This document shows positions 8,527 through 43,017 of a DNA stretch of 64,000 nt, in pieces. The translations under genes and the position numbers were made by a program. Position 1 is the first letter of the stretch. The number at the start of each line of letters is the position of its first letter. The DNA comes from Verrucomicrobiia bacterium (GTDB lineage: Bacteria; Verrucomicrobiota; Verrucomicrobiia; Limisphaerales; UBA11358): contig JANWKE010000155.1 of assembly GCA_025451535.1 (NCBI GenBank), forward strand, positions 1,276-65,275. Reading direction: 5' to 3'. The notes beneath the pieces were generated by a model. It had not been told where the DNA came from, searched no databases, and was given only the letters and a program-made list of their open reading frames with translations.

Positions 8527-8772
8527 ATGGCCGTGAAACTTTGCCAGGGTCAGGTCTGGAAAAAGGACGGACAATATGTCCGCATCGTGCGGCTGGAACG
8601 GCTCGAGGTGGAATACAAATTGCTGGACAGTCTTGCCAGCAAGACCGGCACGAAAACCGTCACCAGCAAAAAAGATTTCTGCCGCCTGCTCAAAGGCGCG
8701 CATCGGTTGTCGGCCCGCAAAAAAATCCCCGAGGGCAGGGTAATTTCGGAACTGAAACCGTCGGCCCGTTGA
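8527..8772 (+). CDS. small basic hypothetical protein
   Basis: MAVKLCQGQVWKKDGQYVRIVRLERLEVEYK, globular beta-rich pattern. Confidence 0.6.
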   Translation: MAVKLCQGQVWKKDGQYVRIVRLERLEVEYKLLDSLASKTGTKTVTSKKDFCRLLKGAHRLSARKKIPEGRVISELKPSAR

Positions 8773-8889: not shown

Positions 8890-9210
8890 TTAGTAGCGAT
8901 TACGATCGCCGTTGCCTCTCACACGGAATTCCCGACGACCGCCGCCGCCGCCGCCGCGTTCTTCACGCGGCTTGGCCACGTTGACCGTGAGGGCGCGGCC
9001 ACCGAGTTGCGAGCCGTTCAGGGCTTCGATGGCCTTCTGGGCTTCCTCGGCGGAGCTCATGGTAATGAAACCAAAACCGCGGGGCCGGCCGGTTTCCCGG
9101 TCCATCAACAGGTTGGTTTCCGTGACCGTGCCGTGCGCGGCAAACGCGTCCTGCAGGTCGTTTTCGGTGGTGTCAAAGGAAAGATTCCCGACAAATAATT
9201 TACTGCTCAT
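8890..9210 (-). CDS. RRM RNA-binding protein with Gly-rich tail (paralog 1)
   Basis: RNP2 LFVGNL, RNP1 [12 protein letters not shown] tail ending RNRY. Confidence 0.95.
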
Positions 9211-9407: not shown

Positions 9408-9590
9408 TCACCGATCAGACGGACGCGCTGGCTCCGTATTTCCACCTGGGTGTTCTATGAAGAACTTCACGATCAACGCCGGTGCGGCCGGGTCGAACTG
9501 ATGCCCGCCCGGAAAAATACACGTGACCAGCGGTATGCCACTCTTTGACGGGTAGAGAGTGCATTGTCTATCCCAATACCCGCCCATGGC
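9408..9590 (-). pseudogene. C-terminal remnant of an alpha/beta-hydrolase (PHB-depolymerase/esterase-like)
   Basis: CTLYPSKSGIPLVTCIFPGGHQFDPAAPALIVKFFIEH resembles an esterase C-terminus with catalytic His; N-terminal part absent. Confidence 0.5.
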
Positions 9591-9746
9591 CGCGCCACCG
9601 TTAACTTTGCGCCCGGTATCCTTCGTGCGCTTCGGCCACGCGAACTTCACCAACGGATCGGTCTGTCCTCCAGGGACCAGCGCGGACCGGGGGCAGGCTT
9701 GTTGGCCTGCCTGGCCGTTGCGGAGATCAGTGTCAAAACAGACAGT

Positions 9747-10823
9747 TCAATTGACTTCCACCGGCAACCCGAGAAACTGGCCATACCGGTCTGCGGCGGC
9801 GGCCACGGCTTGCTTCTCTGCTTTCTTCAACGGATTGAAACTGCTCACGGCGATAACGACGGTCTTTTTATTCAACGTGCGTTTCCAGGTGCCGGCCACG
9901 CGGCCCTGGAGGATGAGGGTGGGTGAAAACACGCCGTTGCTGCCCGGAACAATTTTCTTCGCATGCCGGGCTTCCAGCACCGCGCTGCGGTCCTTGTAGC
10001 CGAGCAAATACTCGTCGAAACCCGGCAATAGTTGCGCTTCTGTCATCCCGGCATTGGGAGCGGCGGCATCCGCCGGCATCCAGAAATCCGCGTTCCCGAT
10101 TCTTTCCCGACGCAACGCGGACGATGCCGCCTCCACTCCCGCACGCGCATCCGCACTCCTCAACCCCGACCATCCGGCAAAATCCGCCAGCAGCGCCGGG
10201 CCGTGACTCGTAAAATAACGCCGCGCCAGTTCGGCCAGCGCCGCCGCGCGGTCCAGCTTCTGCGCGGGTGCAACCCATTCGTCCAGCAGGGCAAATGTCT
10301 GGGACCTGCCCGCGCGCGCGGCAAAAGTGATCAGACCCTCCTGGGCCAGCCGCCAGAGGATGTGATAGCCGCGCATTTTCGCCGTGGAAATCTTGTGGTT
10401 CTCCAGCAGTTCCATCATAGCCTCGCGCGGGAGTTGGCGGCCGCCCTTCAAGGCGCGGACGAACAGCTTTTCGCACCGGGCGAAAACCGCCGCGTCCAGC
10501 TCCAGATTGCGCGCCCGGGCGGCGCTCCCGGCGATGATTCGCGGTGTCAACAATTCCAGAAACCACCGGACATCCGCCGTGGCGACAAAGTGCAACGTGC
10601 CACGCATCAGCCAGGTCCGGACTATCTTCCGTCTGGCGATGGCCTTTTCGACCGCGGCCTCGGTGGCGTCCGGCAAGCGCAGGCCGACGGACCAGAGCGC
10701 GCCGGCATAATCCTGGGCCTGCAGGGCGCCGAGCGCGGCGACCACCTGCTCCGGCTCCCGGCAACGGGAGACTGAAATCAACTGGTTCGCCAGCCGGCAC
10801 CGGCCGATGTCCGTCAACATCAT
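9747..10823 (-). CDS. AlkZ-like (HTH_42) winged-helix DNA glycosylase
   Basis: LQAQD (QxQ) motif, W.MRGTLH, HGPA...DF..WSGL, LLPGFDEYLLGY, G.V.GTW. Confidence 0.88.
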   Translation of the reverse strand: MMLTDIGRCRLANQLISVSRCREPEQVVAALGALQAQDYAGALWSVGLRLPDATEAAVEKAIARRKIVRTWLMRGTLHFVATADVRWFLELLTPRIIAGSAARARNLELDAAVFARCEKLFVRALKGGRQLPREAMMELLENHKISTAKMRGYHILWRLAQEGLITFAARAGRSQTFALLDEWVAPAQKLDRAAALAELARRYFTSHGPALLADFAGWSGLRSADARAGVEAASSALRRERIGNADFWMPADAAAPNAGMTEAQLLPGFDEYLLGYKDRSAVLEARHAKKIVPGSNGVFSPTLILQGRVAGTWKRTLNKKTVVIAVSSFNPLKKAEKQAVAAAADRYGQFLGLPVEVN

Positions 10824-10935
10824 GTCCGGAGGATTTCAAAATCCGCACCGGAACGCCAGTGCGTGATGGCGTTTGCCACCACTGGCCTCGTCAGCCGGCT
10901 TTCGCTTTCACGTTCACAGGCGACTTAATTCTTTC

Positions 10936-11355
10936 TCAAGCGCGCGAGCCAAGGCGGGCCTCGGGGATGGTCGGCTCGAACAGTTCAATCGGATTTCCGG
11001 AAGGATCTTCGAGCAGGATCTGTTTGCCACCCACGCCCGTGACCATCTCGTTGCGGAAACGGGCTCCCGCCTTGCGCAACGTTTCGACCGTCGCGGCGAG
11101 GTCGGGGACCTGGATCGCGAAGCGGTTCCAACCTCCCGGTTCGGGCAGCCGGCCATCAGGCATCGCCGCACCGCCGCCCGGCCCGCCGCCGGGTTTGCTC
11201 AAAACCAACCGAAGATCGCCCAGCGACAGCATGGCGAAAAACGGGGAAGGATGCATGTCTTCGTGGAAACCGAGACGTTGGCAATAAAAGACAATCGCGG
11301 CGTCAATATCATTGACGATGTAACGGACCTGAACCGTGGCTTCGTTCATATTCAT
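10936..11355 (-). CDS. VOC/glyoxalase family protein
   Basis: VRYIVND.DAAI.FY..LGF, PGGWNRF, EDPSGNPIELF. Confidence 0.9.
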   Translation of the reverse strand: MNMNEATVQVRYIVNDIDAAIVFYCQRLGFHEDMHPSPFFAMLSLGDLRLVLSKPGGGPGGGAAMPDGRLPEPGGWNRFAIQVPDLAATVETLRKAGARFRNEMVTGVGGKQILLEDPSGNPIELFEPTIPEARLGSRA

Positions 11356-11401
11356 ATTTCTCCCTGGTTTGAAGCATTCGTTATGGAAGCAAAACCGGTC
11401 A

Positions 11402-11851
11402 TCACCAATTCCATTTGAAGGGCAAAGCGTTGCCGGTTTCGAGCAGGCTCTTCAAGCTGCTGATAATCGCCGGCCAACCCTGGAAGACTTCAAGGGAACG
11501 CCCGCTATCGGGATCGAATTCATCGTGCGTGAGCGTGAGTTTGGCGACGCCAAATGCCATAGCGATTTCGAACGTGACACGCGTCCGTTTCTCGGGAGGC
11601 GCGCCTTCGGGCGTCTGACGCAGGATCGTGTATGAAAGCAGGCGCGGCGGGTCGGCCTGCAACACTTCACCCGACAACTCAATCCCGCCATCCGGCCTGA
11701 GGGTTTTGACGGACGCCCCGACCGTCCAATCGGACTGAATCCGCCGCCCGTTCCAGAATTGCCGGGTAAACTCGGGCTCAGTGAGCGCTGCCCACAACTT
11801 TTCCGGCGTGGTGTTGATATGCGTGACGTAAACGATCTTTGGCTTCTCCAT
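11402..11851 (-). CDS. SRPBCC (AHSA1/START-like) domain protein
   Basis: I.TTPEKLW.ALT.PE, G.VL..DPP.LL.Y, GW...LSSLKS.LETG. Confidence 0.88.
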   Translation of the reverse strand: MEKPKIVYVTHINTTPEKLWAALTEPEFTRQFWNGRRIQSDWTVGASVKTLRPDGGIELSGEVLQADPPRLLSYTILRQTPEGAPPEKRTRVTFEIAMAFGVAKLTLTHDEFDPDSGRSLEVFQGWPAIISSLKSLLETGNALPFKWNW

Positions 11852-12170
11852 AGGCTTCCACGTTTGGGTTTTCGAGATGTTTTTTCAAATCGCTCACCGC
11901 CTGGAGGCGATGACGTTCGTATTTGCCAATCCAGCGCTCGTGGATCTCGTGCAACGGCACCGGATTCAGATAATGCAGCTTCTCGCGCCCGCGCCAGACG
12001 ACGGCCACCAGGTTCGCTGCTTCCAGCAACCCCAAATGCTTGGCAACCGCCTGCCGCGTCATGTCCAGATGCTGGCACAACTCCGACAACGTCTGACCGT
12101 TGCTCCGGTGCAACCGGTCGAGCAACTTCCGCCGGCTCGGGTCGGCCAATGCTTTGAACACGGCGTCCAT
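11778..12170 (-). CDS. ArsR/SmtB-family regulator 1
   Basis: MDAVFKALADPSRR.LLD.L...MTRQAVAKHL..LE.ANLV...GREKLHYLN; 3' end overlaps the SRPBCC gene. Confidence 0.88.
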   Translation of the reverse strand: MDAVFKALADPSRRKLLDRLHRSNGQTLSELCQHLDMTRQAVAKHLGLLEAANLVAVVWRGREKLHYLNPVPLHEIHERWIGKYERHRLQAVSDLKKHLENPNVEAYGEAKDRLRHAYQHHAGKVVGSAH

Positions 12171-12183
12171 TTCGTGAGATAAT

Positions 12184-12203
12184 ATGCAACCAAAAGGTTG
12201 CAT
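12184..12203. promoter_or_regulatory. putative ArsR operator
   Basis: Inverted repeat ATGCAACC-aaaa-GGTTGCAT 13 nt upstream of the ArsR start. Confidence 0.75.
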
Positions 12204-12235
12204 GTCAAGCGGCAAAGTTGTAACGATGTCGGTTG

Positions 12236-12372
12236 TCAGGTTTTCGGTGGCCGATCCCCGCCGGCGAGTTCCTTGGGCCACGGCTGCGGGTCAGCCGGGT
12301 AAATGAGCAACCGGTCGGGCTTGCACTTTACCCCCGGGCAGAAATTCAAGTTCCTCCGGCGCGCCCGCAATC
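12236..12372 (-). pseudogene. frameshifted 3' fragment of the cupin gene
   Basis: Reads IAGAPEELEFLPG/+1/KCKPDRLLIYPADPQPWPKELAGGDRPPKT* versus cupin IIGAPEELEFLQGSKSKMDLSLIYPTDPKQLPKELAGVDWPPKA*. Confidence 0.9.
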
Positions 12373-12453
12373 GCCCGGTTCAACCACGAATGGACGCGAA
12401 TCACCACGAATCCGCTGAGCCCGAAAGACGACGCGCACCCGCCTCGAGCCGGA

Positions 12454-13185
12454 TCAGTCCTTGTATTCATCATGGTAACGCACCCAATCCTGCGAAGCCT
12501 CCGGATTTTCGTTGCGGCCTTTGGCCGTCAGGTCGAGGAAATTGTAGGTGGTGTTCATCAGGTCAATCCCCCGCGCATAAGACGAGTAGGTGTGGTAAAT
12601 GTCGCCGTTCCGGTCGCGGTAAAATGCACTGACGCCTTCGCGTTCGTCCATGTCCATTTCCAACGGGGCATAATTGTAAATGGCCTTGCCACGCTTTCGT
12701 TGTTCCCGCGTGAAGGACACGTTGAAATCAAAATTGAAATCCGTGTCGAACGAGGAAACCCACTTGAACTTCCAGCCCATGCGTTGCTGGAACGGTTCAA
12801 TCTCCTTCCCGGGCGCGCGGGAAACGACGGCGAAAGCGGTGTCGCGTTGGCCAAGGTGAAAGTTCACGCCGTCGAAATGGTCGGCCCAGAATGAGCAATG
12901 AGGGCAGCCTTCACCCCAGGCCGGCCCGAACATGAAGTGGTAGACAATGAGCTGGCTCCGGCCGCAGAATAAATCGGCGAGCGTTACTTTGCCGGCCGGT
13001 CCCTCGAAAACGTAGTCCTTTTCAATTTTGACCCAGGGCAGCTTGCGGCGTTGCCGGTTCAATTGGTCGCGCAGTTTCGAGAACTTCTTTTCTTCGACGA
13101 GGAGTCGTTTGCGGGCCACAAGCCAGTCCTTTTGCGAGACGACTTTGCGGCTCTCCATGCCGCGGAAGGTTTTGATTTTTGGCAT
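12454..13185 (-). CDS. DUF899 (thioredoxin-like) family protein
   Basis: W..AR..LL..EK, RR.LPWV, GRSQLIVYHFMF, CPHCS, YHTYS..ARG, LDLT.KGR. Confidence 0.9.
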   Translation of the reverse strand: MPKIKTFRGMESRKVVSQKDWLVARKRLLVEEKKFSKLRDQLNRQRRKLPWVKIEKDYVFEGPAGKVTLADLFCGRSQLIVYHFMFGPAWGEGCPHCSFWADHFDGVNFHLGQRDTAFAVVSRAPGKEIEPFQQRMGWKFKWVSSFDTDFNFDFNVSFTREQRKRGKAIYNYAPLEMDMDEREGVSAFYRDRNGDIYHTYSSYARGIDLMNTTYNFLDLTAKGRNENPEASQDWVRYHDEYKD

Positions 13186-13228
13186 AATATTTTCCTTTCT
13201 TTGGCGGTCCTGTGACCTTACCGGGCGT

Positions 13229-14086
13229 TCAAGCGCAGCAGCAATCTTTCGACGCGCCTTTCCCGTATTCGTCGCGGCGGCGGAACCAGATTTCCGTCTC
13301 GTTGCGCCCCCGGGGAGCGCGGTCGAGCCACTGGTACATGCCCCAGAGGCTGTCCAGTCCGCGTGCATAGGTGGAATAGGTGTGATAAACGATGCCGTCC
13401 TCAAGCACAAACGCGCTCATGCCCGGCCTTTCGCGGAGGTAAGTGGCCGCGTCCGTCCCGCATCGGGCCGCCATCTCGGCGACGGGTCCGCCACTCTCCG
13501 GCGCCTCGCGCCACTTCCCGGTCTCCCGCCCCTCGAGCGCGCGGTCAGCCTTGGCCGCCGCTTCGCGCCGGTAGTTGTATGCAAAGCCCCCTTTGCGCTG
13601 TTGCTCCGCGGTGAGCCCGACGTCGAAATCGAAGTTGAAGTCGCTGTTGAACGATGATGCCCACGGAAAGGTCCATCCCATGCGCCGCCGGTAGGCCTGC
13701 AGTTTCGTGAACGGCGCCCGCGACACCGCCCAGAGCATCACGTCATGGCTGGCCAGGTGAACCGCGAACCCGCTGAAGCCGTCCGCGATCGACGAGCAGG
13801 CCGGGCACCCGGCCGAGTAGTCGGGGCCGAACATGAAATGGTAGATGAGGACCTGCGAGCGCCCGCGGAAGAGGCCTACCAGCGGGACCTTGCCCTCGCC
13901 GGTCTCGAATTGATACTCCTTGTCGATCCGAACCCACGGCAGTTCCTGCCGCCGGCGCGCCAGTTCGTCGCTGCGCCGGGTCAGTTCCTTCTCCGCCTTG
14001 AGCAGCTTGAGCCGGGCGGCCAGCCATTCCTTTTGCGAAGCCACTTTGTGGCTTTTGATTCTGCGGACAGTTTTAACTTTTGGCAT
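13229..14086 (-). CDS. DUF899 (thioredoxin-like) family protein
   Basis: RR.LPWV, GRSQ.LIYHFMF, CPACS, YHTYSTYARG, WLDRAP.GRNE; C-terminal DCCA. Confidence 0.9.
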   Translation of the reverse strand: MPKVKTVRRIKSHKVASQKEWLAARLKLLKAEKELTRRSDELARRRQELPWVRIDKEYQFETGEGKVPLVGLFRGRSQVLIYHFMFGPDYSAGCPACSSIADGFSGFAVHLASHDVMLWAVSRAPFTKLQAYRRRMGWTFPWASSFNSDFNFDFDVGLTAEQQRKGGFAYNYRREAAAKADRALEGRETGKWREAPESGGPVAEMAARCGTDAATYLRERPGMSAFVLEDGIVYHTYSTYARGLDSLWGMYQWLDRAPRGRNETEIWFRRRDEYGKGASKDCCCA

Positions 14087-14161
14087 AAGGTTCTCCTTTG
14101 TCTCAGGCTGCGATGTCAGTTTGGACCTTCAAACGGAATTTGCCACTTTGGTCGCCACAAC

Positions 14162-14650
14162 CTATTTGCCGACAAATCTTCCGAGTTCGTTGAGGCAACG
14201 AGTCCAGCCCTCTTCGTGCCGGTCGCGGCTTTCGACGGACGCAAACTTCTCGTGCGTCAAAATCAATTCCGTCTGTTTTCCGCGCGCCTTGAATTCAAGC
14301 GTCACGAGCATTTCGGGCGGCTCGACTTCGCCGAATTCATCGCCGCTGCCGTCCTTCTCAAATTGCCACGTGAAAACCAGCCGCTCCGGCGGTTTCACTT
14401 CGCGATAAGTCCCGACGGTCGTGAAAAATTCGCCGTCGGCGCGCCGCACCTGGAGGCGATACTTGCCGCCGGTGCGTACGTCCGCCTTCACTGATTGCAA
14501 TGACGATCCTTCGCACGCTGCCGCTCCGAACCATTGCTTGAACTGGTTCGCCTCCGTCCACGCCTGGAAAACCAGTTCGCGCGGCGCGTCGAAGACGCGG
14601 GTGAGTTGAAGTTTGATGTTGTTTTCTTTGATGGTTGCTGTGGTGTTCAT
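14162..14650 (-). CDS. SRPBCC (AHSA1) domain protein
   Basis: LTRVFDAPRELVF.AWT, G.YREV.PPERLVFTW, H.EGW..CL..L. Confidence 0.9.
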   Translation of the reverse strand: MNTTATIKENNIKLQLTRVFDAPRELVFQAWTEANQFKQWFGAAACEGSSLQSVKADVRTGGKYRLQVRRADGEFFTTVGTYREVKPPERLVFTWQFEKDGSGDEFGEVEPPEMLVTLEFKARGKQTELILTHEKFASVESRDRHEEGWTRCLNELGRFVGK

Positions 14651-14991
14651 TTTTTCTCCTTGGTTTGCAGTTGTTTCAAGTACTCGTCCAAACGGTCAAA
14701 GCTCGTTTCCCAGAATTTCCGGTATTCCTCGATCCACGCCTGCGCCTGCTGCATCGGCCTGGCTTCCAGTTTCAAGCGATGCACGCGCCCGTCGCGCTTG
14801 CGGCGCACGAGCCCGGCGTTCTCCAGGACGCGCAAATGCTTGGAAACCGCCGGCAGCGACATCCGGTACGGCCTGGCCAGATCCGTCACGCAACGATCGC
14901 CGCCCGCGAGATGTTCGAGGATGCGGCGGCGCGTCGGGTCGGCCAGCGCGCCGAACGTGCGGTCCAACAATCGTGTCGAACATTTAACCAT
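14647..14991 (-). CDS. ArsR/SmtB-family regulator 2
   Basis: LDRTFGALADPTRR.IL..L, MSLPAVSKHLRVLE.AGLV, FW...FDRL..YL; ATGA overlap with SRPBCC. Confidence 0.9.
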   Translation of the reverse strand: MVKCSTRLLDRTFGALADPTRRRILEHLAGGDRCVTDLARPYRMSLPAVSKHLRVLENAGLVRRKRDGRVHRLKLEARPMQQAQAWIEEYRKFWETSFDRLDEYLKQLQTKEKK

Positions 14992-15001
14992 ATGGTTAAA
15001 T
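14982..15001. promoter_or_regulatory. putative ArsR operator overlapping the start codon
   Basis: Perfect 20-bp palindrome ATTTAACCATATGGTTAAAT. Confidence 0.8.
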
Positions 15002-15060
15002 ATTAACGCAAAACAAATCCGGCGCAAGAAAAATTTTCGGAATTTTTTGGGGAGAAAAGT

Positions 15061-15522
15061 TTACGCCTTCGGCGGCCAGTCCACGCCGGCAAGTTCCTTG
15101 GGCAATTGTTTCGGGTCGGTCGGATAAATGAGCGAAAGGTCCATTTTGGATTTTGAACCCTGGAGAAATTCCAGTTCCTCCGGTGCGCCGATGATGAGCC
15201 AGAGCACCTCGGCATCGGTGTCGTTGAACACCTGGCGCAACTGGTCCGGCCCGACCAGCACGCCGCCGTAGCGCGGCACGGTCAATGTCTCGTTGCCCAC
15301 ACGCAAGCGGCCCGTGCCTTCCAATACGAAATAGAACTCCTCCGCCCGGATGTGCTTGTGCAGTGTGTTGGCGCTTTTGGGCGGCAACCGCCAGAGCCGC
15401 GCGCCGATGTTTTCGCTCCCGGTGCGTTCCAGATAATCCGCATTCGGAATTTTCATCAGATTGGACGGCCGCCAGAAGAGGTCTTCGGGTTTGATGAGAT
15501 GGTAACCTTGAATGGCTTTCAT
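15061..15522 (-). CDS. cupin domain protein (intact anchor gene)
   Basis: LH.H...EEFYFVLEG.G.L.VG cupin motif 1. Confidence 0.9.
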   Translation of the reverse strand: MKAIQGYHLIKPEDLFWRPSNLMKIPNADYLERTGSENIGARLWRLPPKSANTLHKHIRAEEFYFVLEGTGRLRVGNETLTVPRYGGVLVGPDQLRQVFNDTDAEVLWLIIGAPEELEFLQGSKSKMDLSLIYPTDPKQLPKELAGVDWPPKA

Positions 15523-15695
15523 GATATTTACTCCAGATACAATGTTTTAAAATGGAAGTGAATTCAATACATCTCAACGCCGGTTGCTGCTGCGAGCGCG
15601 AGGCGATCATTTTGAAGTCAATCAATCTTCCCCATCGCACTGTGAATTCTGTGCTAAACTGGTGCAGGAACTTCCTGCGAGTTCCCGGCTGAACT

Positions 15696-16289
15696 ATGAA
15701 TAAACAACTCGCACTGTTCGAAATACCACAACCGCATCTGCCCAAATACAGCCTGGTCCTCGCTGCCTTCCTGGATCATGACACGGGCAAGCAGGTCTAC
15801 CGCCTTGGAAACTCGCTTTGCGAAATGTATGAGTTGTGTGGCAGAATGCGCCCCATCAGCCACCTTCACGTTTCCCTGCCTCTTCCCCGCCTTCCCGGAA
15901 ACCCGCCTGAAATCGCGGTTGAGATCATTCGCCGGGTGTGTAAGGCGGTCGCTACCGTCACGTGTCCGTTTGAAATCAAGTTCGATCGGGTAATGAGCTT
16001 TCAACGAGGATCTGGAAACTATCCCCTGGTTCTTGTTGGTGATGATCACGGAAACGACGGAGTAAGAAACCTGCATCGCTTGCTCTGGGCTGAATTTGCA
16101 AAATATATTTCCACAAATTCCCCGGCTCCGGGATTTGTGCCGCACCTGACCCTCCTCTATGACAAGCAGCAACTTGATCCCAGGGGTATCAAGCCGGTGT
16201 CCTGGACAGTGAGGGAGATCGTCCTTGTAGCCAGCGAAGTCGGGGCGACGAAATATCACGGGCTCGGGCGCTGGGCGTTTTGCGCATGA
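15696..16289 (+). CDS. 2H phosphoesterase (2'-5' RNA ligase-like)
   Basis: Two HxS/T motifs, LHVSL and PHLTL; IVLV.S...Y..LG.W C-terminus. Confidence 0.8.
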   Translation: MNKQLALFEIPQPHLPKYSLVLAAFLDHDTGKQVYRLGNSLCEMYELCGRMRPISHLHVSLPLPRLPGNPPEIAVEIIRRVCKAVATVTCPFEIKFDRVMSFQRGSGNYPLVLVGDDHGNDGVRNLHRLLWAEFAKYISTNSPAPGFVPHLTLLYDKQQLDPRGIKPVSWTVREIVLVASEVGATKYHGLGRWAFCA

Positions 16290-16404
16290 GGTCCTGCCTC
16301 GAGATTGTTGCTCCAAATAAAGTCACCCGAGTTGATTCCGGGCGATGCTCTGTTAGTATGGCGCCATGCTTGGCAGGAACGAGAACCAATTTCTCCTGAT
16401 TTAA

Positions 16405-17283
<879 letters not shown>

Positions 17284-17285
17284 CC

Positions 17286-17345
17286 TGTGTTAGTGCAGCG
17301 TATTCGCGCTCCGGGCGGCCCCCGCCAGAGCCGCGCGCCACGTTG
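17286..17345 (-). pseudogene. internal 5'-half fragment of the cupin gene
   Basis: GARLWR.PP/fs/SANTLH*H; 18-bp exact match CCGCCAGAGCCGCGCGCC to 15388-15405 plus synonymous differences. Confidence 0.85.
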
Positions 17346-17346
17346 A

Positions 17347-18177
17347 ATGAACATGACAATTCGAGCCATAAAAAAACGGAAGCCCTTGGCGGTCCAGTCC
17401 CGCGTTTCCAAGCTGGCCCGCGTGGAGTTTGAGCGGCAACCTTACCCCGTCTTGCTGAAGGAGCCGGCGCAATTCTGGGACGAGGTGTTCATCGCCAACG
17501 AGGCCTATGTACTGGACGAGGTGACCCACCCGCGCATCCGGCGCAAACTGGCATATGATGCCGCCACGCACCGGCTGTTTCTGGAATACATCGAGGGTGA
17601 TACGTTGGCTGACCTGGTGCGCCAGGGCATCACGCTCAAGGATTCCGGGCAGACGCATCGCCTCCTGCAAAGCGTGGCCGAAACGGTGGCGGATATGCAC
17701 GCGGGCATCTTCTGCGGGCGGCCCATCGTCCACAATGATTTGAAGAGCCGGAACGTGATGGTGCCCGTGGCCACGCCCGGGGAAACGCGGCTGATTGATT
17801 TTTCACACTCGTTTTTCGAGGGGAATCTGCCGCCCTTCATCACGGACAAAAAACAAAATCCGGCGGGCACCGCCCAATACTCGGCCCCGGAAAAGTGGGA
17901 GGGGGATTTCACGAAAGGCTTTAAAGGCGATGTTTTCGCCTTTGGCGTCACGGCCTATCATGCGTGCACGGGAAAATATCCGTTTGACGGCACCCTGGCG
18001 CAAATCGAGCGGGCGATCCGGGAGGGGACGCCGCCTTCCCCGCTGAAACCGGGACACAATCTGCTCCGCAACACCGTGATCATCATCATGGCGTGCCTGG
18101 AGAAAAACCCCGACCGCCGGCCGTCCATGGAACAGGTTGCCCAGGTCTACGCCGATTCCGCTTCCTTGCTCAAATAA
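17347..18177 (+). CDS. stand-alone Hanks-type Ser/Thr protein kinase
   Basis: LLK, LEYIEG, HNDLKSRN, DFS, GT.QYSAPE, D.FAFG, CL..NP..RP. Confidence 0.85.
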   Translation: MNMTIRAIKKRKPLAVQSRVSKLARVEFERQPYPVLLKEPAQFWDEVFIANEAYVLDEVTHPRIRRKLAYDAATHRLFLEYIEGDTLADLVRQGITLKDSGQTHRLLQSVAETVADMHAGIFCGRPIVHNDLKSRNVMVPVATPGETRLIDFSHSFFEGNLPPFITDKKQNPAGTAQYSAPEKWEGDFTKGFKGDVFAFGVTAYHACTGKYPFDGTLAQIERAIREGTPPSPLKPGHNLLRNTVIIIMACLEKNPDRRPSMEQVAQVYADSASLLK

Positions 18178-18223
18178 ACCTGCGCCGACAGGTGAACCTT
18201 GGGCCGTAACGTTTCAATCAGAG

Positions 18224-18366
18224 CACGGATAGACACGGATAAACACGGATTAAGACTTGCCAGACCGCCTGTTAAGCAATCCGAAATCCTTCATTGATGA
18301 GTACGGCTCGTTTGCCTGGCTGAAAATCTTTTCTCAACCGTGTTCATCTGTATCCATCCGTGGTTA
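18224..18366. repeat. CACGGAT-periodic inverted repeat
   Basis: cacggatagacacggataaacacggat ... ccgtgttcatctgtatccatccgtggtt; same family as 6274-6443 and 12381-12411. Confidence 0.75.
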
Positions 18367-18408
18367 AAATATGTTTTGCTTCATGAATACGGCCTAAGCC
18401 TTAGCGTA

Positions 18409-18494
18409 AACCGCCAGAGCCGCGCGCTGAGATCACATGGCTCTTGCGGCTCGCATCTTCCGGCTGGAGCAAAAAAGCAGTCGATTGCTTTCAT
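18409..18494 (-). pseudogene. decayed 5' end of the cupin gene
   Basis: MKAID...SARLWR versus cupin MKAIQ...GARLWR; 19-bp exact match AACCGCCAGAGCCGCGCGC. Confidence 0.7.
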
Positions 18495-18549
18495 TGGGTC
18501 ACGCATGCGCATAAAACTCCCGCGGGTTAAGAGATTTGCTGGTTCATAT

Positions 18550-19245
18550 TTATTGCGCGGGCCCTGAGTTCCCGGAGCGGGCCAGCTGTAGCGCCTGCGC
18601 CAGGGCGGTGAAGTGCAACATAATAAAGAATGGAACCATATACGCCGGGATGAGCACGAGCGGTAATTGAGCCATCGCGCTCGTCGTGACGTTCCCGGTA
18701 AACCCGCGGAGAAAGCCCGAACAGAGTGTCCCCATCGACACCGCGATAACGAGGTCAAGGATCCCCATGATATTCCAAACCACAAACCGTCGGCTGGCCG
18801 CGAATGACGGGTGGCGAACAAGTCCGAGCACGATCCACGGCGCGCTGATACCGATCGCCATGTCCCCGAGTCCGGCCGGGAAAGCGAAAAGTCCGGGCAG
18901 CACTCCATATGCATAGAGCGAGAGGAAGCCCAGGCCGGCCCAACGCCACGCCTGAATCGCTGCCGCGAGCCGGAGGTCGGCGCCGAGGACGAACGCCCGG
19001 AATGCGCTCCATCCAAAATAGGCCGCAAAAAACACCGCCAAAGGGATTGCGAAACCGAAGAAAATCGGCAGAGGCGGTGAACCCGCGCTTCCCACAAATG
19101 CCCCTTGAAAGCCGAGGAAAGAAACGAGACCGAGCCACAATGCCAGTGCTACGAAAACGACTGATCTCGCGCTCGAATGGTTATCATCAAGTTCCGAAGC
19201 CACGTTTTCTTTGAGGCTTCCCATGCTTTCAATATTCATGTTCAT
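18550..19245 (-). CDS. multi-pass membrane protein of unknown function
   Basis: About six hydrophobic helices; FA.PAG.GD..., WN..G.LDL, PL.LIP...VP....LH. Confidence 0.8.
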   Translation of the reverse strand: MNMNIESMGSLKENVASELDDNHSSARSVVFVALALWLGLVSFLGFQGAFVGSAGSPPLPIFFGFAIPLAVFFAAYFGWSAFRAFVLGADLRLAAAIQAWRWAGLGFLSLYAYGVLPGLFAFPAGLGDMAIGISAPWIVLGLVRHPSFAASRRFVVWNIMGILDLVIAVSMGTLCSGFLRGFTGNVTTSAMAQLPLVLIPAYMVPFFIMLHFTALAQALQLARSGNSGPAQ

Positions 19246-19353
19246 ATGTTTTGTCCTTTCAGTTTAGTTTTGTTGCTTTTTCTATGGTCTGCGCCCGTTT
19301 TCACGACTGCCTTCTTAAAGTTTGATTCATTGCAACGTTCCCTGATAATTTGT

Positions 19354-19365
19354 GTGTATATACAC
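19354..19365. promoter_or_regulatory. putative MarR operator (upstream of membrane protein gene)
   Basis: Palindrome GTGTATATACAC, repeated at 19839-19852. Confidence 0.7.
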
Positions 19366-19389
19366 TTCGTGGTGCAAAAAAAATTGCGG

Positions 19390-19833
19390 TTATTGCCCCT
19401 TCAACTTCGTGGCCACGTCCTCCAGATCACTGACAATCGCCGACCACCGTTCTTTTCCCAGGATCGCGACCACTTTGTCCTGGGCGGAGCGCCACGCCGG
19501 AAGCAGTCTGGCCAGGGCCCCGCGCCCCTTTTCCGTAATCTCCAGCTCCACGTGGCCGCCTCGTCCGCCGCCTTTTGCCCGGACCAGACCGTCCCGCTGC
19601 AACGGACGGAGATTTCGCAACAGGGTGGTTCGCTCCATTCCGAGCCATTCACTCAATTCGGCCATGCCCCACCCGTCTTTGGCCTGCAATGCGCCCAGAA
19701 TCGGCGTTTGCGTGGGGCGAATGCCATGCTGGCGTACTTCCATGTCAAAGAACTGAGTTACCGCCCGCGTCACCGCGCGGAGGTTGGAGCACACGCAGTC
19801 CTCCATGGACCCGAAATTCCGTTCTTTCTTCAT
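19390..19833 (-). CDS. MarR-family regulator
   Basis: C.C.NLR..TR.VTQ.FD, MERTTL.RNL.PL..DGLV, ITEKG. Confidence 0.88.
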   Translation of the reverse strand: MKKERNFGSMEDCVCSNLRAVTRAVTQFFDMEVRQHGIRPTQTPILGALQAKDGWGMAELSEWLGMERTTLLRNLRPLQRDGLVRAKGGGRGGHVELEITEKGRGALARLLPAWRSAQDKVVAILGKERWSAIVSDLEDVATKLKGQ

Positions 19834-19838
19834 GTTGT

Positions 19839-19852
19839 TGTGTATATACACA
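19839..19852. promoter_or_regulatory. putative MarR autoregulatory operator
   Basis: Palindrome TGTGTATATACACA 5 nt upstream of the ATG. Confidence 0.7.
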
Positions 19853-20016
19853 CAGCGGCCGGATTTGTCAACCATTATTTTGCGGCTGGATGAGATGGCC
19901 ATCGCCAGAGGCGTGAGCCGGGATCACCGTGGCCCGTATGGCCTGCACGTCCCGATGTCTTGAAAATAACCGGCGATAAGCATTGCTATCTGACCGCTGC
20001 GCGCTGAAGCTCGAGC

Positions 20017-20205
20017 ATGACCAACAGTCTCAACTTGCACGGCGCCAGGGAAGTTCACAAACAACTCCAGTTGCGGATGAAGAACAGCGGTCTGGAAACC
20101 ATCAAGGTCCATGTCACCCGCAAATCCGGCAAAAACAAATGCCATTTCACCGGCTCGCCGGAACAAGTCGTAAAGGCGGAGCAGATCCTTGCGGCCTGGT
20201 CCTGA
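20017..20205 (+). CDS. small hypothetical protein (62 aa)
   Basis: Compact ORF with GC-rich codon usage ending FTGSPEQV.KAE.IL. Confidence 0.55.
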   Translation: MTNSLNLHGAREVHKQLQLRMKNSGLETIKVHVTRKSGKNKCHFTGSPEQVVKAEQILAAWS

Positions 20206-20290: not shown

Positions 20291-20609
20291 AAAACTAACC
20301 CGTGCGGCTTCGCACTTAGACCCTCAGCCAGCCGCGGAACCCCCGGCCGCCATGGTAAGATTCCGCGCCGTTGTGACCCACGAAGACGCGGCAGTAACAA
20401 GATTAGAAATCAATAGGAGCTGTCTGTTAAGTAGCTCTTTTTATGAACTTGTCTTTGGCAGTTGGGCTCAGTTCCAACAGAAGTTAAACACGTGAACAGA
20501 CCGTAAAATGAGCTGCGCGGTGTGGAAACCGCCCCAACCAAGACCCAATTCAATTTCGCCAGTTCGACTTCCACGTAAAGCTACGCCACGTGGCAGGCGA
20601 GCACGGAGG

Positions 20610-27601: not shown

Positions 27602-27694
27602 GTGTTGTGTCCGAAGATGGTGCAGAAAGCTGCATCACAGTGACAGCCACGGGCCTGGCCACAGGTGTTTAGATGCGCGAGGTGGGAATAGGCG

Positions 27695-27775
27695 GGCTTT
27701 TCACCACCCACTAAAAGAGGTTTCCGGCAGCCACCGCCACGCGGGGGGATTAACTATCCCAGCGACAGAGCGATT
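27695..27775 (-). pseudogene. decayed duplicate of the ECF sigma gene 3' end
   Basis: 40 of 45 nt identical to 28639-28683; reads AVAAGNLF*WVVKS versus [14 protein letters not shown]. Confidence 0.8.
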
Positions 27776-28598
27776 ATTCGGCATCCGGAGCGGTCTGCTG
27801 GAGACGTTTCAGGTCCTGAAGTTCCGCCGGGTCAGTAACATAACCGCCATTGAACCAGGACACTGGCGCCGGTCCTTTCCACTTCCAGTATTCCGCATGG
27901 TTGTCGGCAAAAACCAGCACCAGGCCGTCCTGGTGCCGTCGAGCCGGGAGGTCCAGCCATTCGTCGATTTTGGAGGCATATAGAAAACCGCCATTGTTGA
28001 TTCCGTTCTCATCCTCATCGAGAAACGTGAGGGACTTCGATGGATGTCGTATCTCGCCGAATTTCATCAGCGGATAGACCATAAAGTTGCTCACGCAGTC
28101 GTCTCCCGCCATGTAGATGCTCAACGACACGCTGCGCAGCCTGGGTGTATTGGTTCCAACCAGGCAGCTATGATCGGCCGGGCAATGGTAAATTTTGATG
28201 GACTGTGCGTAGGGGAAGAGTGTGCCCCGCGTGATGGTTGCCGGGTCTGCATCCCACCTGGCGCTGCCGGTGACCCAGGAGCCCGGCGGGCTGCGGTGGA
28301 TGCCGTTGACAACGCTGTCGAGGTTGAGCGGCAGTCGGCCGCCTGAGTCGGATGCGTCGAGGGTCCATGCGATTCCGAGCTGCCGTTGATTGTTGAGGCA
28401 ACTGGTCGTCAGGGCCCGTGCTTTCGCGCCTGACAAAGCGGGCAGAAGCAGCGAGGCCAGGATTGATATAATCGCGATCACTGCCAGCAATTCAATCAGG
28501 GTAAAACCGGGTTTTGACCTGACGACATTTGGAAACAGCGGCGAACCGGTCCGCAACTCCAATGTCCTCGCGCCAGGGTTGATGGAAATGAACCTCAT
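27774..28598 (-). CDS. prepilin-type N-methylation domain protein with H-X9-DG-like motif
   Basis: [35 protein letters not shown].......FADNH; start overlaps the sigma stop. Confidence 0.88.
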
Positions 28599-30625
28599 AT
28601 CGTTTCCGGGGTTTGGATGGATGAAGCGGAAACCGGCCGGCTTTTCACCGCCCACCAAAAAAGGCTTCCGGCAGCCGCCGCCAGTGCGAGGATCCACAGC
28701 GCGGAGATGGATTGATCCAGTGGCGGCAGACCGGCCGTTCCGGCTACGTAAACGTAAGTTTGGTAAGTGATGCCCTGGCGAGTCAACACTTCCTGGGTGG
28801 ATTCGTTCGCGGGAGCAATGTAGTCGGGAGTGCGACGGTCGGAAATCCAGAGTTTTCTGGAGCCATCCAAATACTCAAAGACTTCGAACCGGGCATACTT
28901 GTGTTGAGCGACGATGGCCGGGACCTGGCCGGCGGAGATGGTGCGGACCTTCCAGTCCGTGGTCATCCCCTGGAAAACGGCGAGGGCGACCATTCCACAC
29001 GCGGCCAAGGCGGCAAAAGCTTTGTCCACACGACGTTCATTTCTGAGGCTCGTGGTGGAATGCGGTACGGATTGGCGGTTACGGCTCCCGCGCAATAACG
29101 TAACGGCCCCAGCCACGAGGATGAAACAGCAGAATGGATTCAGCAGCTGCCGGGACCACCATCCGACGTGCGTCAGGCTGACAGGGGGGTAATTCCGGTT
29201 TTCAATTTTCGTCTCATAACTGATGGCTTTCTGCTTAAGCAGGGCCACCGTGCTGTCCTCCGCCGGCGCGACGAAAGGGCACATCTTCTGGTTCTCCAGC
29301 AGATCGCCAGAGAGAATGCGGGCTCCGCGGGCGCTTTGGAAAATACTGAAACGAAACTTCGGGACCTGCGAATTGGCGATGTAGTTCTGCACCTCACTGG
29401 TGGACAGGTAGCGAGGTTGGGAAAAATGCGAGCGGGGGGATTGACCGAAAAGCCAGCACATAGTTGCCAGGTAGGCGATAGCCGCGGTCATGGCCAGCAT
29501 CACCCAAAGTCTGCCCGAGCCGGGAAATTGCCTGGAGAATGGCCTGCCGATGGCCCGTTCAGGAACGGTTCGCCGCCGGCGTTGCCAAATCCAGATGACG
29601 AGGGACAACGGCACTGCCGCAAATAGAAAGACTGGCAGACAGACGTTCCACCAAAAACCCAACATGGTGTAACCTTTGGCGTCAGACAGGTGGAACACTC
29701 GGTAGAGCAAGAGCATCACGGGCAGAGGCAGGCCGACAAAGCAGAACATGCCAATTCCCAAAGTGCGCCAAAAGGCAGCTACCGACCGGCGCGCCCGCTC
29801 ACTATTCTGACTGTCGCCTCCCATCTTGTATCCTATGTAACCGCCCAAGGGCAAAGCCGCGGCAACCCAGTAAACCATGCCCATAAAGACATAGGAAATT
29901 CCCTGCACCAATCCGCTCGAGCTCGTGGTCTTGGCTGCCACGCTGCCGTGCTGCGCCAGCACCGTGCCGACCGTCGCCGCCTTGGCCGTTGTGGCCAGCA
30001 GCGGCAGTACGGCAATCACGCCGAGCGTGAAGGCCTTGTCCGGAGCGGTTTGTTTCAGCGCACCGGCGACAAAGGCGAGGAATTGTTCCTGCAACAGTTT
30101 CCGCCCGCGTGAGAGTCGCTGCTTCACCGCGTCCTCGCTCAACTCCAAATCGTGCGCGACGGCCTCGATGGATTGGTGTTCGCGATAAAACAAAACCAAA
30201 GGTTCGCGATAGATCTCCGGGATGCGTTCGAGCGAACGCCAGAGAATCGCCTTTTCCTCCTCGCTGATAACGCGGTCTGGCGGCAGCGGTTCTGGTGAGA
30301 TCCATTCGTCTACCGCTTCCAGCGATTCGGCGGTGTGAGCCGGCTCGCGCCCCAGCCGCCGAAATTCCTTGCTGATGAGAAAACGAGTGATGCTGCACAG
30401 CCAGGGCCGCAACCTGGCCGGCTCCCGCAATTCCGCGAGCTGTTGCCAGGCATTCACGAAGGTTTGCTGGGCGAGGTCTTCGCTCCGGCTCACGTCGCCC
30501 GTGGCGCAATACGCCAGCGAGGAAATCAAGGTTTGATACCGTTCCACAATCCGGCGGAAGGCATCCCGGTTTCCGGCCAAACTTTCCGCTACCAACTCGG
30601 CATCGTTGAATTCCGCCGTTTGCAT
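28595..30625 (-). CDS. ECF sigma-70 factor with long multi-pass membrane C-terminal extension
   Basis: D.ELV...[36 protein letters not shown]; several TM helices downstream. Confidence 0.88.

Positions 30626-42942: not shown

Positions 42943-43017
<75 letters not shown>

Follow-up and report, generated by a model that had tools for sequence, protein, structure and literature searches.

We analysed a 64,000-nt window of DNA from a Verrucomicrobiia bacterium of the order Limisphaerales (GenBank assembly GCA_025451535.1, contig JANWKE010000155.1, positions 1,276 to 65,275 of the forward strand) and observed an array in which partial copies of gene ends, hereafter called scars, divide unrelated cargo genes around an intact cupin gene. 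In this genome and its relatives we directly observed the scars, their polarity, the shuffling of cargo, displaced neighbour genes, mosaic gene tails and, for the clearest scar, an origin in a foreign allele. These data suggest, at a probability that we put at roughly 0.6, an integrase-free cassette array in which same-strand gene-end scars separate shuffled cargo, built by homologous recombination in which a resident gene received a new end while its former end, together with the neighbour, was displaced outward. A first-pass annotation of the window had proposed that cargo from relatives accretes on either side of the cupin, anchored by homology and with no integrase, and our comparison supported this proposal. 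Its view of the cupin as a special anchor did not hold: the chief anchor in relatives is thiC, scars come from several genes, and the pattern is genome-wide.

At least one cupin scar in the window derives from another allele

The cupin (15061-15522, minus strand; Pfam Cupin_2) is intact. We scored candidate pieces of it by local alignment against shuffled sequences, and genome-wide with a profile of 22 orthologs. Below, G000 is the genome of the window, L-numbers are loci of relatives, and C-numbers are contigs of G000. The clearest scar, 12237-12371, corresponds to cupin nt 328-461 on the same strand (E 5e-22 genome-wide; 0/500 shuffles). A second, 17286-17344, corresponds to nt 112-172, also on the same strand (E 5e-8; 0/500 shuffles). 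A same-strand piece at 18401-18433 (nt 113-145) was matched by 0/500 shuffles locally, yet reached only E 0.3 genome-wide. It belongs to a composite scar, 18409-18494, that is common to relative L069 (0/1000 shuffles) and whose first 40 nt alone were no better than chance against the window cupin (74/1000). The stretch 19897-19983 was marginal against the cupin (4/500 shuffles; 6/100 against 52 orthologs) and was homologous to the 18409-18494 composite (0/1000 shuffles).

The first-pass annotation had listed six cupin remnants. The four above stood, the last of them weakly, and all confirmed remnants lie on the cupin strand as it had stated. The remaining two did not rise above chance. The candidate at 9665-9740 (418/500 shuffles; 86/100 against 52 orthologs) falls inside the remnant of an S9-peptidase-like gene, and that at 16320-16392 (351/500; 72/100) is the region upstream of the SASA esterase gene, common to other SASA loci. 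Strong genome-wide matches to the cupin were confined to this locus, so the pieces are not a dispersed repeat.

Synonymous substitutions had been reported for the clearer remnants. We observed this bias in the 12237 scar, where differences fall at 13.7 of 28.7 synonymous and 14.3 of 91.3 non-synonymous sites; the other two scars were too short for such a measurement. The 12237 scar aligned better to the cupin of L033 (score 161) than to the window's own cupin (125), and the 17286 scar gave 84 versus 65 in the same comparison. Because its better match is the L033 gene, the 12237 scar is not a local copy; judged from these alignments, at least this scar is the end of a divergent allele, as the annotation had supposed. 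A contig of public run X2 covers 10563-12835 with 59 differences, and because it spans the scar it argues against misassembly there.

Local tandem duplication followed by decay, with cargo gained through unrelated events, would also leave nearby same-strand copies. Two full cupins do occur in L064, and the window has two ArsR-SRPBCC pairs 2.8 kb apart. We consider this explanation very unlikely, since the 12237 scar is nearer to alleles of other genomes than to the local cupin, and duplication gives no cause for end polarity or for displaced neighbours that are first neighbours of the intact gene elsewhere (see below).

The first-pass annotation also raised a recombinase acting in trans on a shared ARLWR core. 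A 16-nt version of this core is indeed near-identical at 15389, 17323 and 18412, but it lies in a conserved coding stretch and only 7/35 cupin pieces cover it. In L031 and L062, the flank past the DUF4256 stop codon joins directly to cupin nt ~115. Read from these junctions, the core repeat in the window represents the left edge of a single inherited DUF4256-flank/cupin junction, which needs no recombinase core, and we regard such a recombinase as extremely unlikely.

thiC is the main anchor in relatives

The nearest relatives of the cupin are labelled Verrucomicrobiota, several of them Limisphaerales. With one genome per species in the comparison, a DNA search gave matches in 84/163 genus genomes. 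We compared 60 genus loci, comprising the 40 top intact matches (unselected) and 20 loci picked for visible fragments; only the 40 are unbiased, because the others were picked for showing fragments. L057 and L058 overlap, and one was left out of most counts.

We observed the same gene pool in shuffled order across the 60 loci, and the variable surroundings of the cupin that had been predicted for relatives are thus seen as differences in gene order between loci. The cupin is ahead of the kinase in 3 loci and behind it in 11, and ahead of the aldo-keto reductase in 14 and behind it in 11. thiC was ahead of the cupin in 26/26 loci with both genes, and the RRM gene was behind it in 20/20. The conserved 660-aa head gene, considered as an integrase, proved to be ThiC.

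Searches with per-gene profiles found 46 fragments of thiC (42 from its last 165 nt), 36 of the cupin, 16 of c17, 12 of TMEM175 and 10 of DUF4256. For the reductase, second cupin, RRM and kinase genes, which are equally common, the searches gave 0-2 fragments each. The thiC tail that recurs across relatives is the last 40-165 nt of the gene and is far commoner than cupin pieces; among unselected loci it was present in 17/26 with thiC. The cupin is therefore not special, and thiC is the main anchor in relatives.

In G000, thiC sits on contigs C121/C63, away from the window array. The distal end of the window array (RRM, c13, RF3) matches that of thiC-headed arrays such as L053 and L060. Because of this resemblance and the location of thiC on other contigs, the window is likely the distal part of an array that thiC heads in relatives, and a rearrangement would have detached it. 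At C121:7412-17855, thiC faces array genes (reductase, second cupin, TMEM175) in an orientation opposite to that in most relatives, which suggests an inversion.

An IS200-like Y1 transposase was present in six full copies in genus arrays (L044, L071, L074, L078, L085), four times directly before the cupin. The genus arrays also contained one DDE transposase. Both kinds were provisionally treated as cargo, although the Y1 transposase may be either cargo or engine.

Scars keep the strand of their gene and a preferred side

All 35 cupin pieces were on the cupin strand, and all ten 5'-terminal pieces were upstream of the gene. The thiC tails were uniformly same-strand and downstream (36/36). We scanned G000 for local partial gene copies, excluding dispersed repeats, adjacent pieces, contig ends and pieces >260 nt, and found 49, of which 48 were same-strand. 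Counted per anchor and with the C57 paralog family dropped, 3' pieces were downstream in 13 cases and upstream in 3, and 5' pieces were upstream in 8 and downstream in 1 (Fisher P = 0.002). The anchors include purC, trpB, thrS, miaA, yjbQ and hemN, and the cargo at the purC scar is the HigA antitoxin and its neighbour. In the outgroup G462 (800 kb, 632 genes) we found 0 downstream 3' scars, compared to ~2.5 expected from 13 anchors in the 3321 genes of G000, too small a difference to set the two genomes apart.

At C57:2679-9479, a run of genes shares its first 40-60 nt, with orphan copies of this start in between. In a second small case in the window (27664-27750, 27774-28562 and 28595-30625, minus strand), a 262-aa cargo gene separates an ECF-sigma fusion gene from a downstream 77%-identical copy of the last ~87 nt of the sigma gene.

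Displaced neighbours and recombination in gene tails

We compared the 120 nt past each scar with the 120 nt past an intact copy of the same gene elsewhere (DISPLACEMENT). These flanks matched for thiC in 16/45 cases (control 6/145), for the cupin in 8/17 (11/140), for c17 in 5/14 (0/147) and for DUF4256 in 3/9 (3/147), although some low-scoring matches perhaps come from shared short repeats. One cupin/thiC-tail junction occurred 11 times in 10 loci with 7 right flanks and about six next genes. Because a single junction has 7 different right flanks, exchange appears to have taken place in or just after the 40-nt scar.

The tails of intact genes also carry a signal of exchange. In a comparison of 30 intact thiC genes, their final 240 nt were decoupled from the gene body (rho -0.06, -0.05), compared to 0.28-0.56 for other segments of the gene. 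Long thiC fragments were mosaic relative to the intact gene, with 5/370 versus 81/362 differences in L120 and 118/540 versus 11/187 in L114. In 14/21 same-locus thiC pairs, the breakpoint was beyond all 200 permutations.

Long thiC fragments and motif M in sister families

A search for thiC tails gave matches in 150/201 genomes of the order, many of them with more than one (the tally includes the unpublished genome G355). The order-level sample of 20 loci was drawn mostly from those with multiple thiC-tail matches. Sister-family arrays contained thiC fragments of 500-735 nt, up to six per contig, that were mostly open (dN/dS 0.01-0.44 versus the intact gene). Their cargo includes restriction-modification (RM), toxin-antitoxin and TIR-Argonaute genes; RM cargo was absent among the Pfam-labelled genes of the window.

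Directly ahead of 20/31 long thiC fragments found via thiC we observed a 70-nt AT-rich motif, here motif M (its profile derives from the same loci). It was present in 38/251 genomes of the order (G355 included) and was not found in G000. We counted 109 distinct copies; thiC follows 83 of them and a thrS tail follows 4. One cargo gene recurs ahead of the motif, both where thiC comes next (L120, L121) and where thrS does (L225, L247), and cargo stop codons often abut the motif. Pairwise identity averaged 87% in the motif core, compared to ~69% in the adjoining fragment at third positions; the recovery of many copies through exact matching inflates this conservation. Motif M stood before long thiC or thrS tails in L111, L113, L117 and other order-level loci, with TIR-Argonaute pairs in the cargo.

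As a candidate attC or attI site, motif M was rejected: it folds no better than shuffles, and 21 intI loci gave one weak match (E 0.03). It matched no Rfam family, had 0 exact matches in viral contigs, and was found in 0/301 genomes of the phylum, almost all from other orders, in a search with no positive control. The motif M copies of L111 lack a sigma-70 consensus; one such site abuts a copy on the reverse strand. Among the clustered proteins, no recurrent enzyme was found beside the motif.

The position of motif M ahead of thiC and thrS tails, the shared cargo gene that stands before it at both, the abutting stop codons and the conserved core would all fit a trans-acting factor (a recombinase, nicking enzyme or DNA-binding protein) that reads the motif and drives gene-end replacement, with the genus arrays as degenerate descendants lacking it. 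We consider this unlikely. In addition to the inflated conservation and the missing enzyme, G000 lacks the motif yet is scarred at many genes, and the four types of motif junction look like deletion derivatives of one ancestral junction. On this reading of the junction types, motif M may have hitch-hiked as a promoter or as flanking sequence; a promoter, a binding site or a hitch-hiker may each account for it. A broader possibility, which we offer only tentatively and consider rather unlikely, is an undescribed, self-perpetuating cassette system of Limisphaerales that uses a housekeeping gene's tail as its recombination site. Motif M would mark the cassette end, move with cargo between thiC and thrS and be read by a trans factor, and defence genes would be stockpiled and shuffled in integron-like fashion without IntI or attC. 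The window would then be a motif-less, homology-driven descendant.

The arrays yielded no integrase and no clear attC site

We searched by tblastn with six recombinases of G000, including its integron integrase IntI, and found no match in the window, the 60 genus loci, the 20 order-level loci or the motif M loci. Pfam searches covered 92 cluster representatives and 76 cargo proteins without identifying an integrase; 206 singletons were covered by tblastn only. An attC profile built from genus integron loci had no match in the window or the order-level loci and 1 weak match across 61 loci, compared to 8 matches elsewhere in G000. Genuine integrons with canonical attC sites exist in the genus, and intI is present elsewhere in 28/61 genus genomes. 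None of 14 array gene families was present in 21 integron loci. Cassettes are not co-oriented: the kinase, SASA, 2H and c8 genes are reversed in the window. An integron, or a cluster of attC sites lacking an integrase (CALIN), is ruled out by the lack of IntI beside the array, the lack of attC and the mixed orientation. On other contigs of G000, we observed an integron integrase (C132:423-1409) and attC-like sites (C141, C24, C152, C146, C173).

Tandem accretion at the 3' ends of conserved genes is an established phenomenon, and the scars could be attachment-site (att) remnants of integrative elements stacked in tandem at gene 3' ends whose integrases were later lost. The thiC fragment starts of sister families do cluster at four points (nt ~1225, 1260, 1397 and 1505), and G000 encodes tyrosine and serine recombinases away from the array. 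We nevertheless consider this reading quite unlikely. The 61 genus and 20 order-level loci and the motif M loci gave no recombinase match, and in the genus the thiC scar starts are scattered (nt 1831-1956), as are the cupin scar ends along the gene; later deletions blur the pattern in both genus and sister families. At least 13 unrelated anchors in one genome, together with mirror-image 5' scars, would each need an integrase of their own.

Proposed mechanism

We propose that gene-end replacement by homologous recombination would proceed in two steps. In the first, DNA of a relative, likely taken up by transformation, would pair with the recipient in a shared gene, and its free end would be joined inside the recipient copy near the end of homology. 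The recipient would thereby gain the cargo while keeping 40-170 nt of its former gene end. The side of the scar would be set by the side from which cargo enters, giving 3' scars downstream and 5' scars upstream. In the second step, the gene and its scar would act as two homology arms, so that the cargo could insert additively in any relative with the gene, either by double crossover of linear DNA or by way of a circle that has looped out. Common cargo genes (cupin, DUF4256, TMEM175) would themselves turn into anchors and give nested scars. Of the transformation genes, comEC was present in 61/61 genus genomes, and the genes dprA and comM were present in G000. Ku-dependent end joining was set aside, as no Ku was found in G000.

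Several observations weigh against gene-end replacement by homologous recombination. The 3' cupin scars break polarity (4 upstream, 2 downstream), and a cupin scar was detectable in only 5/40 unselected loci. For TMEM175 scars, the intact downstream flank was matched in 0/11 cases. The natural conservation gradient of thiC (9% versus 18% divergence) accounts for part of the mosaic signal, although L114 and two L112 pairs run opposite to it. Where loci share the first neighbour of thiC, their tails were not significantly closer (7 pairs, P = 0.06); the same test for the cupin was weakly positive (P = 0.02, pairs not independent). Among the joints listed from assembled contigs of four public runs (word shares 0.10-0.30), there was no excised circle and no cassette-free or cupin-to-scar joint. 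G000 comEC (C79:32723-33580) is interrupted by an in-frame TAG, whereas most genus copies are open. Arms of 40 nt are short for RecA, and homology-facilitated illegitimate recombination is reported as rare (PMC6382021, PMC5361080). Finally, motif M is not accounted for by plain homology.

Relation to known systems

Three published systems come close. In Rhs C-terminal displacement (Jackson et al. 2009, PMC2935791), 3' copies lie downstream and homologous recombination mediated by a circle was proposed. The arrays described here likewise have same-strand 3' fragments of variable length downstream (the thiC tails and 12237-12371), old ends that are displaced and not deleted, a core decoupled from its tip, no integrase, and a displaced neighbour that is attached to the intact gene elsewhere (thiC and cupin flanks). 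The Rhs anchor, in contrast, is a polymorphic toxin whose payload is its own new tip. Here the anchors are thiC, the cupin, purC, trpB, thrS and others, the product is unchanged and the payload is unrelated genes; 5' scars also occur, and cargo genes become anchors.

The push-back order of effector-immunity arrays of the Vibrio type VI secretion system was ascribed to homology-facilitated illegitimate recombination (Kirchberger et al. 2017, PMC5361080). The integron-like push-back order and the absence of a known integrase are common to both. As that source presents them, the Vibrio arrays mostly lose the old effector, involve selected immunity genes, and comprise one gene class at three loci, whereas here the anchor stays intact and many unrelated genes are involved. 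Insertion with long target duplication leaves direct repeats >30 bp, mostly in competent species (Furuta et al. 2010, PMC2853133). Direct repeats of this length at start or stop codons and the lack of a mobility gene are shared features; RM cargo occurs in the thiC arrays of sister families but not in the window. Single RM insertions are reported there, with near-identical repeats in the cases consulted; in our arrays divergent alleles form the repeats, ~76-88% identical in the window, these are stacked, and the genus cargo is mostly non-RM.

With integrons and CALINs, these arrays share a cassette pool, shuffled order and apparently newest cargo beside a fixed head; they differ in having no IntI beside the array, no attC and cargo on both strands. 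Minimal mobile elements of Neisseria exchange cargo via flanking conserved genes after transformation. Exchange by recombination in conserved genes is common to those elements and our arrays, but they swap cassettes between two flanking genes, whereas here cassettes are added and a gene-end copy is left. The array thus belongs to neither toxin families nor integrons. Our literature search, which left most subscription papers outside its reach, returned no description of thiC-tail or Verrucomicrobiota gene-end arrays.

How hotspots gain genes without an integrase and without loss is an open question. End displacement had been proposed for toxin loci; its appearance here at ordinary genes across the genome, and in either direction, suggests a general way for transformable bacteria to gain genes. 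The rule would be simple: a short gene-end copy makes cargo a portable cassette. In this order the thiC tail is a hotspot of defence genes, and motif M offers a handle on any dedicated machinery.

Feature map of the window array

We compiled the features of the array from its head to its distal boundary (Table 1). The gene labels of the first-pass annotation were matched in Pfam by Cupin_2, ArsR, SRPBCC, both DUF899 genes, VOC, AlkZ, 2H, SASA and the kinase; the MarR label stayed below the cut-off, and the membrane protein had no family.

Table 1. Features of the window array (window positions; scar coordinates within genes in nt)
Feature	Position	Strand	Basis or remark
PFOR (pyruvate:ferredoxin oxidoreductase)-like gene, array head in this genome	20610..25358	-	NCBIfam TIGR02176 match below cut-off
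Putative short copy of the 3' end of the head gene itself	20550..20565	-	16 nt, 7/1000 shuffles, weak
DUF4256 3' scar, nt 494-576 of 576	20316..20398	-	E 5e-18; 84-89% identity to intact copies of relatives
62-aa shared-pool gene, no Pfam/NCBIfam family	20017..20205	+	Cluster c8, 13 full copies in loci
Very worn composite scar, DUF4256 flank and cupin nt ~115-135	19897..19983	-	0/1000 versus 18409 composite and versus L056 composite
MarR-like regulator, cargo block with membrane protein	19390..19833	-	Weak HTH matches; same pair in L042, L056, L067, L069
Membrane protein, cargo	18550..19245	-	No Pfam family
Composite scar with worn start of the cupin, 3' flank of DUF4256 and cupin nt 113-135	18409..18494	-	Alignment and shuffles
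Last ~20 nt of thiC fused to cupin scar	18394..18415	-	Same junction in L054; 0/300 and 0/1000 shuffles
Ser/Thr protein kinase, cargo, reversed in arrays	17347..18177	+	Pfam Pkinase
Cupin scar nt 112-172, one stop and one frameshift	17286..17344	-	Kinase-scar-SASA layout repeated in L063
SASA esterase, cargo	16405..17283	+	Pfam
2H phosphoesterase, cargo	15696..16289	+	Pfam
Intact cupin; thiC-array cargo in relatives, also secondary anchor	15061..15522	-	Cupin_2; behind thiC in 26/26 loci with both
Cargo block ArsR-SRPBCC-DUF899-DUF899, between cupin and its 3' scar	12454..14991	-	Pfam
Cupin 3' scar nt 328-461, other allele, one frameshift	12237..12371	-	E 5e-22
Block ArsR-SRPBCC-VOC-AlkZ	9747..12170	-	Pfam
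S9-peptidase-like gene, 3' remnant	9431..9732	-	E 2e-61
RRM gene, usual distal array boundary	8890..9210	-	Behind cupin in 20/20 loci with both

An intact DUF4256 gene was not found in G000. In L043 and L068, the cupin or its scar is immediately ahead of ArsR-SRPBCC. From its position behind the 12237 scar, the ArsR-SRPBCC-VOC-AlkZ block would be older than the cupin-adjacent block. The second ArsR frame (11778-12281, minus strand) has no stop before the SRPBCC start, which it overlaps by 74 nt, and may be frameshifted or extended.

Inverted repeat arms of the CACGGAT/CACGAAT type were observed beside scars at 18226-18250, 18340-18370 and 12385-12416. We take these to be REP-like, and related arms are frequent at cassette borders in relatives. 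A small conserved 81-aa array protein with no Pfam or NCBIfam family is encoded at 8527-8772 (plus strand). The sole Rfam match in the window is a tRNA gene at 42943-43014 (plus strand).

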